Source: Escherichia coli (lineage in GTDB: Bacteria; Pseudomonadota; Gammaproteobacteria; Enterobacterales; Enterobacteriaceae). From it: a stretch of DNA of 64,000 bases. This document shows, in pieces, positions 37,604 through 46,589 of this stretch. Location: the NCBI RefSeq assembly GCF_003790525.1, contig NZ_CP033635.1; one strand, written 5' to 3'. The translations under genes and the position numbers were made by a program. The notes under the pieces were generated by a model. That model ran no database searches and had not been told where the DNA came from. It worked only from the letters and a program-made list of their open reading frames with translations. Within the stretch, counting starts at the first letter, position 1; every line of letters starts with the position of its first letter.

Positions 37604-37638
37604 CGCAGGAGTACCAGTGCGGTACTCCTGTTGGTTTT
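37604..37638. terminator. Hairpin (caggagtacc / ggtactcctg) then TTGGTTTT, between convergent yhiD and hmuV
   Basis: Read from the sequence. Confidence 0.55.
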
Positions 37639-38407
37639 AATGATCGAGGACGATCAGTGGTGAATGGTTGGCAGGATCTTTAAGTACGGTAATATCCGCG
37701 CCGTAGAGCATTGTCAGCGCCTGCTGTGTCAATACGTCCTGCGGCTTACCATTTGCGATAACCTTTCCTTTTTGCATTAATACAACACGGTCTGCATAAC
37801 GCGCGGCAAGATTTAGATCGTGCAATACGCAGCAAACATTGAACTGCCGTTCGTGAACTAACTGGCGTAATAAACGAAACAAGTGCTGCTGATGGTGAAT
37901 ATCCAGCGCCGAAGTTGGTTCATCAAGAAATAACCATTTCGGTGAGGGAGTAGGTTCCCAGAGTTGCACCAGCAGGCGCGCTAATTGCACGCGCTGTTGT
38001 TCACCACCGGATAATTGCCGATAGTCGCGGTTTGCTAACGCCTGACAGTCACATAACGCTATTATTTGTGCTGTTTCATTATCCTGATTACCAGTACGAT
38101 GCGGATGCCGCCCCATCTGGATAACTTCTTGTACGCTGAATGGAAACGCCATGTGGCTATTTTGACGCATCACGGCCCGGTGTTTCGCCAGTTCAGTAAT
38201 CGACCATTCATTTAATGGCTTATTAAACAACCGACATTCGCCGCTATCAGGTTGAAGATAGCCGGTTAGCTGGCGAAGCAGCGTAGATTTTCCCGCACCA
38301 TTAGGGCCGAGGATGGCAACAATTTCCCCACCGGGAAAAGTCAGCGAGACATTATCAGTCAGACGCCGCCCCTGAAGGCTATAAACCAGATTCTGGGCGC
38401 TGATCAT
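37637..38407 (-). CDS. hmuV: Haemin ABC transporter ATP-binding protein (ChuV/HmuV)
   Basis: 256 aa from ATG at 38407; Walker [13 protein letters not shown] signature [12 protein letters not shown] start/stop overlap with chuU. Confidence 0.85.
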
Positions 38408-39396
38408 GTGATCCTCCGGTTGCGCAGAATCAACCACATAAAATAAGGGCCACCAAGCAGGCTGGTTAATAATCCCACGGGCATTTCTGCTGGCTGTACC
38501 AGCGTGCGGGCAAGCGTGTCTGCCATCAGCAATAAACAGGCTCCGGCGAGGGCGGAACAAGGGATTAGCCAGCGGTGATTTGCCCCGGTAGTCATGCGAA
38601 TCAGATGCGGGATCACCAGGCCAATAAAGCCGATAATGCCGCTTACCGATACGGCGGCACCAACGAGCAGTGAGCTCACTAACAGTAATTGCTGGCGTTT
38701 ACGCTTAACGTTCACGCCGAGGTAGTGGGCTTCTTCATCACCGAGCTGCAGTAAATTCAGCGTTCCGGCGAGACAAGTTGTTGCGATAATGGCCGGTAGG
38801 ATGAATGAACTGGCAACCAATAACGTCGGCCATTGCGCCTGTCCAAGATTGCCCATCATCCACAATGTGAGTTGTCGTAGCTGCTGCTCATCGCCGATAT
38901 AGCTCAGGATGCCGATCGCTGCGCCGCACAGGGCATTGATGGCGATACCGGCGAGTAATAATTGCATCATGCTGCCATCGCGATGGCGCTGCGTGATGAG
39001 AAAAATGATGGTGCAGACCACTAAACTTCCGGCAATGGCAAACACCATTTGCTCATAGAGCACCAGCACCACTGGGAAGGAGAAGGGCAGCACAATAGCA
39101 ACGCCAACCATTAATGCAGAACCGCTACTGACGCCAAGTAATCCAGGGTCAGCCATTGGGTTGCGAAAAAGCCCTTGCATAATTACCCCTGCGGTTGCCA
39201 ACGCTGCACCTACCAGCACCGCCAGCAAAACCCTTGGTAGACGAATATTGAGCCAGATATCGCGGTATTCCTCATCAAAAAGGGCATCAAAACTGATCTT
39301 TAACGCTCCCTGACTGGCACCAAACAGCACCAGAGCGAGCAATAATAGTGATAGCCCCATAAAGACCCTGGCGGAAGAGAGTGAATCCTTGAGCAC
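38404..39396 (-). CDS. chuU: Haemin ABC transporter permease ChuU
   Basis: 330 aa FecCD-family multi-TM ORF. Confidence 0.9.
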
Positions 39397-39444
39397 GCAA
39401 AACTCCGTTACGACATTACGGCGCGGACATACCGCGCCGGGGGA

Positions 39445-43529: not shown

Positions 43530-45512
43530 ATGTCACGTCCGCAATTTACCTCGTTGCGTTTGAGTTTGTTGGCTTTGGCTGTTTCTGCCACCTTGCCAAC
43601 GTTTGCTTTTGCTACTGAAACCATGACCGTTACGGCAACGGGGAATGCACGTAGTTCCTTCGAAGCGCCTATGATGGTCAGCGTTATCGACACTTCCGCT
43701 CCTGAAAATCAAACGGCTACTTCAGCCACTGATTTGCTGCGTCATGTTCCTGGAATTACTCTTGATGGTACCGGACGAACCAACGGTCAGGATGTAAATA
43801 TGCGTGGCTATGATCATCGCGGCGTGCTGGTTCTTGTCGATGGTGTTCGCCAGGGAACGGATACCGGACACCTGAATGGCACTTTTCTCGATCCGGCGCT
43901 GATCAAGCGTGTTGAGATTGTTCGCGGACCTTCAGCATTACTGTATGGCAGTGGCGCGCTGGGTGGAGTGATCTCCTACGATACGGTCGATGCAAAAGAT
44001 TTATTGCAGGAAGGACAAAGCAGTGGTTTTCGTGTCTTTGGTACTGGCGGCACGGGGGACCATAGCCTGGGATTAGGCGCGAGCGCGTTTGGGCGAACTG
44101 AAAATCTGGATGGTATTGTGGCCTGGTCCAGTCGCGATCGGGGTGATTTACGCCAGAGCAATGGTGAAACCGCGCCGAATGACGAGTCCATTAATAACAT
44201 GCTGGCGAAAGGGACTTGGCAAATTGATTCAGCCCAGTCTCTGAGCGGTTTAGTGCGTTACTACAACAACGACGCGCGTGAACCAAAAAATCCGCAGACT
44301 GTTGAGGCTTCTGATAGCAGCAACCCGATGGTTGATCGTTCAACAATTCAACGCGATGCGCAGCTTTCTTATAAACTCGCCCCGCAGGGCAACGACTGGT
44401 TAAATGCAGATGCAAAAATTTACTGGTCGGAAGTCCGTATTAATGCGCAAAACACGGGGAGTTCCGGCGAGTATCGTGAACAGATAACAAAAGGAGCCAG
44501 GCTGGAGAACCGTTCCACTCTATTTGCCGACAGTTTCGCTTCTCACTTACTGACATATGGCGGTGAGTATTATCGTCAGGAACAACATCCGGGCGGCGCG
44601 ACCACGGGCTTCCCGCAAGCAAAAATCGATTTTAGCTCTGGCTGGCTACAGGATGAGATCACCTTACGCGATCTGCCGATTACCCTGCTTGGCGGAACCC
44701 GCTATGACAGTTATCGCGGTAGCAGCGACGGCTACAAAGATGTTGATGCTGACAAATGGTCATCTCGTGCGGGGATGACTATCAACCCGACCAACTGGCT
44801 GATGTTATTTGGCTCATATGCCCAGGCATTCCGCGCCCCGACGATGGGCGAAATGTATAACGATTCTAAGCACTTCTCGATTGGTCGCTTCTATACCAAC
44901 TATTGGGTGCCAAACCCGAACTTACGTCCGGAAACTAACGAAACTCAGGAGTACGGTTTTGGGCTGCGTTTTGATGACCTGATGTTGTCCAATGATGCTC
45001 TGGAATTTAAAGCCAGCTACTTTGATACCAAAGCGAAGGATTACATCTCCACGACCGTCGATTTCGCGGCGGCGACAACTATGTCGTATAACGTCCCGAA
45101 CGCCAAAATCTGGGGCTGGGATGTAATGACGAAATATACCACTGATCTGTTTAGCCTTGATGTGGCCTATAACCGTACCCGCGGCAAAGACACCGATACT
45201 GGGGAATATATCTCCAGCATTAACCCGGATACCGTTACCAGTACCCTGAATATTCCGATCGCTCACAGTGGCTTCTCTGTTGGGTGGGTTGGTACGTTTG
45301 CCGATCGCTCAACACATATCAGCAGCAGTTACAGCAAACAACCAGGCTATGGCGTGAATGATTTCTACGTCAGTTATCAAGGACAACAGGCGCTCAAAGG
45401 TATGACCACTACTTTGGTGTTGGGTAACGCTTTCGACAAAGAGTACTGGTCACCACAAGGCATCCCACAGGATGGTCGTAACGGAAAAATTTTCGTGAGT
45501 TATCAATGGTAA
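43530..45512 (+). CDS. chuA: TonB-dependent outer-membrane haem/haemoglobin receptor ChuA
   Basis: 660 aa ORF with a signal peptide, TonB-box-like ETMTVTA, and a C-terminal aromatic residue. Confidence 0.95.
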   Translation: MSRPQFTSLRLSLLALAVSATLPTFAFATETMTVTATGNARSSFEAPMMVSVIDTSAPENQTATSATDLLRHVPGITLDGTGRTNGQDVNMRGYDHRGVLVLVDGVRQGTDTGHLNGTFLDPALIKRVEIVRGPSALLYGSGALGGVISYDTVDAKDLLQEGQSSGFRVFGTGGTGDHSLGLGASAFGRTENLDGIVAWSSRDRGDLRQSNGETAPNDESINNMLAKGTWQIDSAQSLSGLVRYYNNDAREPKNPQTVEASDSSNPMVDRSTIQRDAQLSYKLAPQGNDWLNADAKIYWSEVRINAQNTGSSGEYREQITKGARLENRSTLFADSFASHLLTYGGEYYRQEQHPGGATTGFPQAKIDFSSGWLQDEITLRDLPITLLGGTRYDSYRGSSDGYKDVDADKWSSRAGMTINPTNWLMLFGSYAQAFRAPTMGEMYNDSKHFSIGRFYTNYWVPNPNLRPETNETQEYGFGLRFDDLMLSNDALEFKASYFDTKAKDYISTTVDFAAATTMSYNVPNAKIWGWDVMTKYTTDLFSLDVAYNRTRGKDTDTGEYISSINPDTVTSTLNIPIAHSGFSVGWVGTFADRSTHISSSYSKQPGYGVNDFYVSYQGQQALKGMTTTLVLGNAFDKEYWSPQGIPQDGRNGKIFVSYQW

Positions 45513-45560
45513 TCATCTGCCCCGATATTTCGGGGCATTTATCTGGAAGGAAGAGAGACA

Positions 45561-46589
45561 ATGAACCACTACACACGCTGGCTTGAGTTAAAAGAACAAA
45601 ATCCCGGAAAGTACGCGCGTGACATCGCAGGTTTAATGAATATCAGCGAAGCAGAACTGGCATTTGCGCGCGTCACGCACGACGCGTGGCGGATGCGCGG
45701 CGATATCCGTGACATTCTGGCGGCGCTCGAAAGTGTTGGCGAGACCAAATGTATTTGCCGTAATGAATATGCAGTCCATGAGCAAGTTGGTGCGTTCACA
45801 AACCAGCATTTGAACGGACATGCCGGATTGATCCTCAATCCGCGCGCGCTGGATTTACGTCTGTTTCTCAATCAATGGGCCAGTGTTTTCCACATCAAAG
45901 AAAACACGGCTCGTGGCGAACGCCAGAGTATTCAGTTCTTTGATCATCAGGGCGATGCATTACTAAAAGTTTATGCCACCGACAATACCGATATGGCGGC
46001 ATGGAGTGAGCTTCTGGCACGGTTTATCACCGATGAGAATACGCCGCTTGAGTTAAAAGCCGTTGATGCGCCAGTTGTTCAAACGCGAGCCGATGCCAGT
46101 GTGGTCGAGCAAGAGTGGCGGGCGATGACCGACGTTCATCAGTTTTTTACGTTGCTCAAGCGCCACAACCTGACGCGCCAACAGGCGTTCAATCTGGTGG
46201 CAGACGATTTGGCCTGCAAAGTATCCAACAGTGCGTTGGCGCAAATTCTTGAATCTGCACAGCAGGATGGCAATGAAATCATGGTGTTTGTTGGCAACCG
46301 TGGCTGCGTACAGATTTTCACTGGCGTGGTAGAAAAAGTGGTGCCAATGAAAGGTTGGCTGAATATTTTTAACCCGACGTTTACTCTTCATCTATTAGAA
46401 GAGAGCATTGCTGAAACCTGGGTAACCCGTAAACCTGCTAGTGACGGTTATGTGACCAGTCTGGAATTGTTTGCCCATGATGGTACGCAGATAGCGCAAC
46501 TTTATGGTCAACGTACAGAAGGCGAACAGGAGCAAGCGCAATGGCGTAAGCAAATTGCTTCGCTGATACCGGAAGGCGTTACTGCATAA
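45561..46589 (+). CDS. chuS: Haem oxygenase / haem-degrading protein ChuS
   Basis: 342 aa ORF directly downstream of chuA. Confidence 0.9.
   Translation: MNHYTRWLELKEQNPGKYARDIAGLMNISEAELAFARVTHDAWRMRGDIRDILAALESVGETKCICRNEYAVHEQVGAFTNQHLNGHAGLILNPRALDLRLFLNQWASVFHIKENTARGERQSIQFFDHQGDALLKVYATDNTDMAAWSELLARFITDENTPLELKAVDAPVVQTRADASVVEQEWRAMTDVHQFFTLLKRHNLTRQQAFNLVADDLACKVSNSALAQILESAQQDGNEIMVFVGNRGCVQIFTGVVEKVVPMKGWLNIFNPTFTLHLLEESIAETWVTRKPASDGYVTSLELFAHDGTQIAQLYGQRTEGEQEQAQWRKQIASLIPEGVTA

Follow-up and report, generated by a model that had tools for sequence, protein, structure and literature searches.

The best described haem-uptake systems of this type are the chu locus of Escherichia coli O157:H7 and uropathogenic E. 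coli (UPEC) and the shu locus of Shigella dysenteriae. According to the literature on these systems, ChuA, energised by TonB, would bring haem across the outer membrane, ChuT would carry it through the periplasm and ChuUV would pump it into the cytoplasm, where iron would be freed aerobically by ChuS and anaerobically by ChuW, ChuX and ChuY through a radical S-adenosylmethionine (SAM) route via anaerobilin. The genes form two divergent units, chuTWXYUV and chuAS, each of which would be repressed by iron-loaded Fur at its own Fur box, and both mRNAs would carry an RNA thermometer over the Shine-Dalgarno sequence (SD), the ~292-nt chuA leader adding control by small RNAs (sRNAs) and Rho. Here we analyse such a locus in a 64,000-nucleotide stretch of an E. 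coli genome (RefSeq assembly GCF_003790525.1, contig NZ_CP033635.1), which as a whole is called the window and to which all coordinates refer. The region is almost certainly a complete and intact chu locus (for E. coli haem utilisation; shu in Shigella), which as identified is already thoroughly known biology; its comparison with the loci of other genera leads us to propose, with a probability of about 0.65, that it arose when two ancestral enterobacterial haem loci merged head to head, each shedding its redundant part.

With chu of O157:H7 and UPEC and with shu of S. dysenteriae, the locus in the window shares the eight genes, their order and orientation, the site between yhiD and dctR (yhiF), the Fur boxes, the FourU thermometer and the features of the chuT 5' untranslated region (5'UTR). 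It differs from that of O157:H7 in its intergenic region and chuA leader, which are of the UPEC-type allele and ~11% diverged, in residue 27 of ChuT (Met in the window, Ala in O157), and in its host, an environmental strain. The hemPRSTUV/hmuRSTUV operons of Yersinia and of other Enterobacteriaceae such as Citrobacter, Enterobacter, Kluyvera and Buttiauxella likewise possess a Fur box ~300 nt before the receptor gene, an invariant GCCAGCC...CAGCCAGC motif together with a hairpin of a U-run and the SD before the receptor ATG, and a receptor and a HemS that are 70–88% and 66–85% identical to ChuA and ChuS, respectively; on the other hand, they are colinear, encode an intact HemP (PF10636) and another TUV set (ChuT 31–36%), and have no chuWXY within 10 kb. 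An operon on plasmids of Providencia rettgeri shares with the window the lengths and overlaps of the genes T-W-X-Y-U-V as well as a homologous upstream Fur box and 5'UTR, but has an intact 714-residue receptor ahead of T and neither chuA nor chuS. The post-transcriptional control of haem receptors by HmuP/HemP through an HmuP-responsive element (HPRE), described for shmR of Ensifer meliloti and chuR of Chromobacterium violaceum (PMC9131926), resembles the chuA leader in the position of a small open reading frame (ORF), followed by a motif rich in GCCAGCC/CAGCCAGC ~30 nt before the receptor ATG. It differs in that the Escherichia leader encodes no recognisable HemP and that the documented control of chuA involves FourU, CyaR, RyhB, Esr41 and Rho (PMC9002310).

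Identity and position of the locus

The 11.3-kb stretch that contains the locus matches the E. coli SMS-3-5 chromosome (NC_010498.1) and several further genomes with 100% identity, and gene limits were taken, in window coordinates, from the RefSeq annotation of the identical SMS-3-5 sequence (Table 1). All eight chu genes are intact within 37637–46589, chuVUYXWT on the minus and chuAS on the plus strand. The original prediction, a complete chu locus between yhiD and dctR, was therefore accurate, its limits being exactly the stop codons of chuV and chuS. ChuS, ChuY and ChuT match solved structures with E-values of 1e-134 to 1e-228; the match of ChuT to ShuT (2r7a) covers residues 49–304, the mature domain starting at residue 49. 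Compared with an O157:H7 genome, the eight genes have equal lengths and are 96.4–98.6% identical at the nucleotide and 97–99.9% at the amino-acid level (99.85% for ChuA), the changes being mostly synonymous, and all 2234 full-length matches among complete genomes are at least 95% identical. Given this high identity, the assignment to chu stands and the locus is complete. Growth on haem as iron source would be expected by analogy with chu/shu, from which the enzymology is transferred as well.

The gene overlaps reported beforehand were found in the sequence: the TGA of chuU and the ATG of chuV share 4 nt (ATGA, 38404–38407, minus strand, CACATGATC) and those of chuX and chuY a single one (TGATG at 40068, minus strand, CCTGATGAC), so that translational coupling of the overlapping genes may reasonably be supposed. 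The intergenic gaps between chuW and chuX and between chuT and chuW are 12 and 19 nt. In K-12 MG1655, dctR and yhiD are convergent and only 41 bp apart, in agreement with the claim of a contiguous junction; homology to K-12 stops 5 nt past the yhiD stop (37590) and restarts at the dctR stop (46650). The 36-bp filler that K-12 carries at this place gave only chance-level scores against the chu segment and against all chu-positive Escherichia loci, and consequently the junctions carry no scar that would give the direction of the event.

Origin of the two transcription units

ChuA and ChuS are 85% and 79% identical to their counterparts in seven other genera, in line with the values observed among those genera themselves (82% and 79%), whereas ChuT, ChuU and ChuV are outliers, with 36, 61 and 51% identity against 68, 80 and 65% among the same genera. 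Moreover, about 75 non-Escherichia loci are colinear, in the order hemP-R-S-T-U-V, and contain no W, X or Y. Both observations are in favour of the merger. According to this proposal, a first locus, hemP-hemR-hemS-hemTUV, would have kept its receptor and hemS (now chuA and chuS) and lost TUV, its hemP turning into the chuA leader; a second one, receptor-T-W-X-Y-U-V, would have lost its receptor save the promoter, the Fur box, the 5'UTR and the first 26 codons, which became fused to chuT.

An operon with the latter organisation was encountered when plasmids were searched with ChuW by tblastn, which identified two P. rettgeri IncC plasmids (NZ_LC507075.1 and AP025671.1). There, the gene of a TonB-dependent receptor is followed colinearly by T-W-X-Y-U-V, the products of which are 81, 86, 87, 80, 88 and 81% identical in amino-acid sequence to those of the window, with the same 1-nt and 4-nt overlaps. 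Colinearity of window and plasmid DNA starts at the -35 region, takes in the Fur box, the 5'UTR and the ATG and extends to approximately codon 26, and the chuT promoter region is conserved with the DNA upstream of the plasmid receptor gene. The N-termini of the plasmid receptor (MLPRNNQRPFILSALTLCMSGAAFAA) and of annotated ChuT (MPRIITRPFLFSPLTLCISAVASAA) align with a Smith-Waterman score of 67, compared with 19.9±4.3 for the null (reached in 0/2000 shuffles) and 27 for the ChuA signal peptide used as control. The plasmid T protein begins at its own signal peptide, MKKLL..., equivalent to residue 32 of annotated ChuT, and the crystallised ShuT chain begins at residue 49. chuT's own ATG (…MKKLFTAVLALSWAFSATAA, MKKLF...) is kept in E. 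albertii and in two divergent Escherichia lineages; the SMS-3-5 and O157 alleles have lost it via a 9-nt deletion, which fits the use of the upstream ATG in experiments (PMC5458455). We infer from these comparisons that Escherichia deleted nearly the whole receptor gene and that its regulatory region and signal-peptide codons were fused to chuT. Met27 was also considered as the true ChuT start in E. coli; it was discarded since this residue is Ala in O157, since the published work on the transcription start site (TSS) and the thermometer uses the upstream ATG (PMC5458455), and since the native chuT ATG is deleted in both E. coli alleles.

Several observations surround this arm of the locus. 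Annotated ChuT contains two tandem signal-peptide-like segments (42766–42846, minus strand). The plasmid operon travels with fetAB and cueR and adjoins ISCR1/IS26, sul1 and qacE-type genes of a resistance region. A match on a Rahnella megaplasmid comprised only hutW and a ChuY-like gene but lacked T, U, V and a receptor, and was therefore uninformative on the architecture. In Escherichia sp. MOD1-EC7003, an ERIC-like repeat (enterobacterial repetitive intergenic consensus) replaces the equivalent of ~37596–43100 of the window, from chuV through the chuT promoter, so that only chuAS is left; ERIC-like repeats of 127 nt lie at 5885–6000 and 6190–6320 of that locus, the endpoint of the deletion (~43100) falling between the two promoters.

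Evidence for the other ancestor comes from the chuA leader. About 70 non-Escherichia species (Citrobacter, Enterobacter, Kluyvera, Lelliottia, Leclercia, Buttiauxella, Cedecea, Pluralibacter and others) have a receptor gene 70–88% identical to ChuA with a Fur box 300–320 nt upstream, and the interval encodes a protein of 54–68 residues, ending in GQHYLLRQTxAGKLILTK, that belongs to Pfam family hemP (PF10636, 62–64 bits for a cutoff of 25). In both its offset (-262) and its start context (ATGGATAAC), the 53-codon ORF in the leader of the window agrees with hemP of 66 other loci. A DNA profile of the non-Escherichia leaders matches the window in two colinear blocks: the first (43193–43322, E=1.6e-6) comprises the promoter, the Fur box and the hemP start, where 'ATGtcacgtATGGATAAC' of the other genera aligns with 'ATGACA-TCATGGATAAC' of the window, and the second (43450–43558, nhmmer E=2e-22) begins with the hemP stop context 'AAATAA' and reaches the chuA start. 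The leader ORF aligns with HemP in one frame over 48 residues (Smith-Waterman score 51, null maximum 28±4.4, 0/300–400 shuffles), other frames, the reverse complement and neighbouring ORFs used as controls remaining at the null level. With moderate confidence, the long chuA/shuA leader can thus be regarded as a decayed hemP. ERIC-like-type insertions also lengthen the hemP-hemR spacer in several Buttiauxella species, in which the Fur box is found at -428 to -509.

Downstream of the ORF, a motif of the form GCCAGCCACCC(A/C)GG-N4-11-CC(C/A)AGGCAGCCAGC is conserved to at least 95% among 68 distinct sequences that represent more than 10 genera. It conforms to the HPRE pattern of GCCAGCC/CAGCCAGC motifs in the 5'UTR directly upstream of a haem receptor gene and, compared by eye, resembles the HPRE of C. 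violaceum chuR, CCCGCAAGCCAGCCGACAGCCAGCCAGCG (PMC9131926). It seems somewhat more likely than not that both chu/shu regulatory leaders are gene stumps of the merged loci, that the HPRE-like motif outlived HemP and that ChuT was left with two tandem signal peptides.

The evidence on the origin of the locus does not all point the same way. The merger is favoured by the pattern of outliers among the proteins, by the colinear hem loci, by the P. rettgeri operon with its identical overlaps, and by the orthology of the plasmid receptor N-terminus and upstream DNA to the start of chuT, together with the hemP relic. Counting against it, receptor-TWXYUV is known from a single captured segment (two plasmids plus identical contigs), and a search with the exact plasmid receptor protein returned only the same ISCR1-captured context. 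As to hemP, the leader ORF gave no match to the Pfam hemP domain (GQxYxLRxTxxGKLILTK) at E≤10, and a HemP hidden Markov model (HMM) compared with three-frame translations of six Escherichia leaders aligned only 'MDN', at ~0 bits; when this shared MDN start is removed, 5/300 shuffles reach the ORF-HemP score. The ORF was accordingly rejected as a member of the HemP/HmuP family and is at most a hemP relic. The Shigella locus is said to have no hemP homolog (PMC6158557), and distant-mode blastn with the Citrobacter youngae hemP against 5426 E. coli genomes found no match, although such a search would miss a distant paralogue. We considered as well that the leader ORF could be a functional upstream ORF or leader peptide rather than a relic: the frame is uninterrupted in the SMS-3-5/UPEC-type allele, which 1216 genomes share at 99% or more, it starts 30 nt from the TSS, and its 3' end overlaps with the CyaR/Hfq and Rho elements (PMC9002310), so that its translation could in principle modulate Rho access. 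This is nevertheless very improbable, as the ORF is frameshifted at three different places (-1 in O157:H7, a different -1 in E69, +1 in E. albertii), its start codon is lost in two lineages (ATG to GTG in one; in MOD1-EC7003 the loss is accompanied by a 127-nt ERIC-like insertion), the two E. coli alleles disagree at 13 of its first 35 residues, and it has neither a preceding SD nor a family match.

The textbook view, according to which pathogenic lineages acquired chu horizontally as a pathogenicity islet inserted between yhiD and dctR, draws on the absence of the locus from K-12 with a clean junction, on its presence in only 41% of complete genomes, and on its description as pathogen-associated or horizontally acquired in the literature (PMC5458455, PMC9002310). 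We regard it as unlikely. In a ChuA-based scan of one genome per species, E. albertii and divergent Escherichia lineages were found to have the same divergent chu locus, placed between hdeB(-yhiD) and dctR-slp. The same neighbourhood is thus occupied there, and an ancestral locus later lost from the K-12 lineage is no less likely than an insertion. While the predicted position of the locus at the yhiD-dctR junction was right, the insertion suggested by its wording is, for the same reason, at best as likely as such a loss. The GC content of the locus, 50.4%, is typical of E. coli, the flanking acid-fitness genes (~46%) being the atypical part; the source strain is environmental (PMC6714894), the divergence of ChuA and ChuS from other genera is vertical-like, and no repeats, integrase, mobility genes or tRNA, as used to recognise genomic islands, were found at the chu junctions. 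In E. albertii NBRC 107761 (4037–4103 of its locus), which has no yhiD at this place, hdeB is followed after ~65 nt by the chuV stop.

Table 1. Features of the chu locus and its flanks, in window coordinates
Feature	Coordinates	Strand	Basis or remark
yhiD	36938-37585	+	RefSeq; flank
chu-specific segment, 9059 bp; K-12 has a 36-bp filler instead	37591-46649		Junction alignment
11-bp-stem hairpin between convergent yhiD and chuV	37605-37631	+	Terminator scan
chuV (hmuV), haem ATP-binding cassette (ABC) transporter ATPase, 256 aa	37637-38407	-	NCBIfam NF010068, 393 bits (cutoff 261)
chuU, haem ABC permease, 330 aa, GTG start	38404-39396	-	Pfam FecCD, 320 bits
chuY, anaerobilin reductase, 207 aa	39445-40068	-	PDB 5ffq/5guy, E ~1e-134 over full length; Pfam NAD_binding_10
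chuX (hutX), cytosolic haem carrier, 164 aa	40068-40562	-	TIGR04108 HutX, 209 bits (cutoff 110)
chuW (hutW), radical-SAM anaerobic haem-degrading methyltransferase, 445 aa	40575-41912	-	TIGR04107, 569 bits (cutoff 400)
chuT, periplasmic haem-binding protein, 304 aa as annotated	41932-42846	-	PDB ShuT 2r7a, E 1.5e-161; Pfam Peripla_BP_2
ChuT codons 1-26, MPRIITRPFLFSPLTLCISAVASAAK, putative remnant, coding for a signal peptide, of a deleted gene for a TonB-dependent receptor	42769-42846	-	Sequence comparison
chuT 5'UTR, 42 nt, putative RNA thermometer corresponding to the published hsp17-like one of shuT	42847-42888	-	PMC5458455
chuT-operon Fur box, GATAATCATGATCATTCTC, 16/19	42870-42888	-	At +1 to +19; identical in O157:H7
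Putative chuT promoter: -35 TTGAAT 42924..42919, -10 TATAAC 42900..42895	42895-42924	-	Read relative to TSS 42888
chuA promoter-like site: TTGATC, 17-nt spacer, AATAAT (43224-43229)	43201-43229	+	Promoter-like sequence
chuAS Fur box, 17/19 on minus strand, 16/19 on plus strand	43221-43239	+	Overlaps -10 and +1
chuA 5'UTR, ~292 nt	43238-43529	+	PMC9002310, mapped to the window
53-codon leader ORF, putative decayed hemP relic	43268-43429	+	Position and weak pairwise similarity
Invariant motif GCCAGCCACCCCGG-TATTAA-CCCAGGCAGCCAGC, HPRE-like	43467-43500	+	Cross-genus conservation
shuA/chuA FourU RNA thermometer over the SD	43501-43532	+	Rfam RF02597, 60.1 bits (gathering score 58)
chuA, TonB-dependent haem/haemoglobin receptor, 660 aa	43530-45512	+	TIGR01785, 588 bits (cutoff 317)
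GC-rich 8-bp hairpin between chuA and chuS, then TTTATCTGG	45518-45537	+	Terminator scan
chuS, haem-degrading/haem oxygenase-like protein, 342 aa	45561-46589	+	PDB 1u9t/4cdp, E ~1e-228; Pfam HemS x2
dctR	46650-47180	-	RefSeq; flank

Fur sites, RNA thermometers and leader alleles

The window was scanned for the Fur consensus GATAATGATAATCATTATC, allowing at most three mismatches. Matches occur only at the two boxes listed in Table 1, where 0.02 would be expected, and none of 100 shuffles reaches four strand-hits; they are the only two sites that had been claimed. The second had been placed exactly on the best 19-mer, whereas the interval given for the first, 42872–42891, is offset by 2–3 nt from the best 19-mer although the site itself is right. 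In S. dysenteriae, shuT is transcribed from a site 42 nt upstream of the start codon, and the Fur site that is functional there, 19 nt long with three mismatches, occupies +1 to +19 (PMC5458455), which by sequence corresponds to 42888..42870 of the window. The 5'UTR of chuA in O157 Sakai measures 291 nt by differential RNA sequencing (PMC9002310); mapped by alignment, it puts the chuA +1 at ~43238, inside the Fur box and 8–9 nt past the AATAAT. Positions of TSSs in the window thus derive, by sequence identity, from those in S. dysenteriae and O157:H7. Since they fit the published TSS and Fur-site data, the prediction of Fur boxes on both divergent promoters is right in substance, except that the chuT site lies downstream of its promoter. 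The chuAS box is identical in six Escherichia lineages, and neither box differs in the divergent O157:H7 allele or in relatives at the level of E. albertii. Binding of Fur and iron repression have been reported for shuT of S. dysenteriae on the basis of electrophoretic mobility shift assays and reporters (PMC5458455), and Fur control is cited for chuA (PMC9002310); by analogy with S. dysenteriae and O157:H7, Fur would bind and confer iron-dependent repression at both boxes of the window.

Both RNA thermometers are known, yet they did not appear in the original prediction. The FourU element is matched over its full length, 32/32 positions being identical to the consensus, and in the predicted hairpin UUUU pairs with GGAG; at 25 °C the SD is predicted to pair with an upstream U-rich run in 71/71 loci examined. 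In the shuT thermometer, U15 and U16 pair with the SD (PMC5458455), and the chuT 5'UTR of the window has the same length of 42 nt and a U at both +15 and +16. On the other hand, its minimum free energy fold at 37 °C leaves the SD unpaired and is no better than those of shuffles (z=+0.67), although a weak fold would be expected of such an element; a thermometer function of the chuT 5'UTR would be transferred from S. dysenteriae. Rfam matches to mir-761 and ceN63, far below their gathering scores, were dismissed as chance matches.

The targets reported in the chuA leader are CyaR/Hfq (+160 to +200), a repressive element (+177 to +217), Rho (+271), RyhB and Esr41 (PMC9002310). The 683-bp spacer between chuT and chuA is at least 99% identical in 1216 genomes and 80–90% identical in 1007 others including O157:H7. 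The differences between the alleles cluster within the chuA leader (~43247–43442); conservation extends to the Fur boxes, to the sequence separating them and to the last ~90 nt before chuA. This divergence of the leader between enterohaemorrhagic E. coli and UPEC is already known (PMC9002310), and SMS-3-5 carries the UPEC-type allele. Two small ORFs between the Fur boxes (42954–43118, plus strand, and 43000–43161, minus strand) were rejected as genes, since both are frameshifted by an indel of the O157 allele and no genome has anything annotated there. The ~275 bp between the divergent promoters (42925–43200) contain no conserved ORF or known element, yet are ~95% conserved between the alleles. 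One RefSeq locus-tag number, possibly that of a withdrawn call, is missing between chuT and chuA in SMS-3-5 (RS19195) as well as in an O157:H7 genome (RS01520); no feature is listed between the two genes (42847–43529) in the 40 genomes sampled.

The hairpin between yhiD and chuV, kept in all chu-positive Escherichia loci, is probably a bidirectional terminator. That between chuA and chuS possibly acts as a partial terminator or as an mRNA stabiliser in a bicistronic chuAS mRNA.

Distribution and significance of the locus

The full locus is present in 2234–2236 of 5426 complete E. coli genomes (41%), always on the chromosome and in single copy. Among the isolates with perfect matches are some from river water, surface water, pangolin and chicken, and SMS-3-5 is itself an environmental strain (PMC6714894). 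The strain had been assigned to a haem-utilising lineage and described as pathogenic E. coli or Shigella-like; the latter is not justified, as the source is environmental and isolates from water and animals carry the locus. Taken together with the occurrence in 41% of genomes and at the same site in E. albertii, this indicates that chu marks a lineage and not pathogenicity. Clermont typing uses chuA as a phylogroup marker (PMC6113867). The value of the identification accordingly lies in typing, as had been anticipated for a piece of known biology: it places the strain in the chuA-positive E. coli phylogroups and allows no call on pathogenicity.

Elsewhere in the window, Rfam identifies the GadY sRNA (27866–27979, minus strand, 150 bits), the ES205 sRNA (33759–33830, minus strand, 106 bits), which lies inside a 110-residue 'hypothetical protein' (33669–33998) overlapping gadE, and two AgrB antisense RNAs (53681–53763 and 53914–53997, minus strand, 85 and 108 bits) adjoining the dinQ type I toxin gene (54273–54359). 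An intact gene for a hypothetical protein of 407 residues is found past slp (48145–49368, minus strand), its K-12 counterpart yhiS being a pseudogene split by IS5. According to RefSeq, the region ~49950–53530 contains arsRBC followed by an extra ArsR/SmtB-family regulator and a permease, which are not known to belong to the K-12 arsRBC layout.

If correct, the merger of two haem loci would explain three features of the chu/shu systems: the ~290-nt chuA leader, mostly of 'unknown role', which diverges by 11–17% among E. coli lineages while its last ~80 nt are invariant; the position of the shuT Fur site downstream of the transcription start; and the presence of two signal-peptide-like segments in annotated ChuT.

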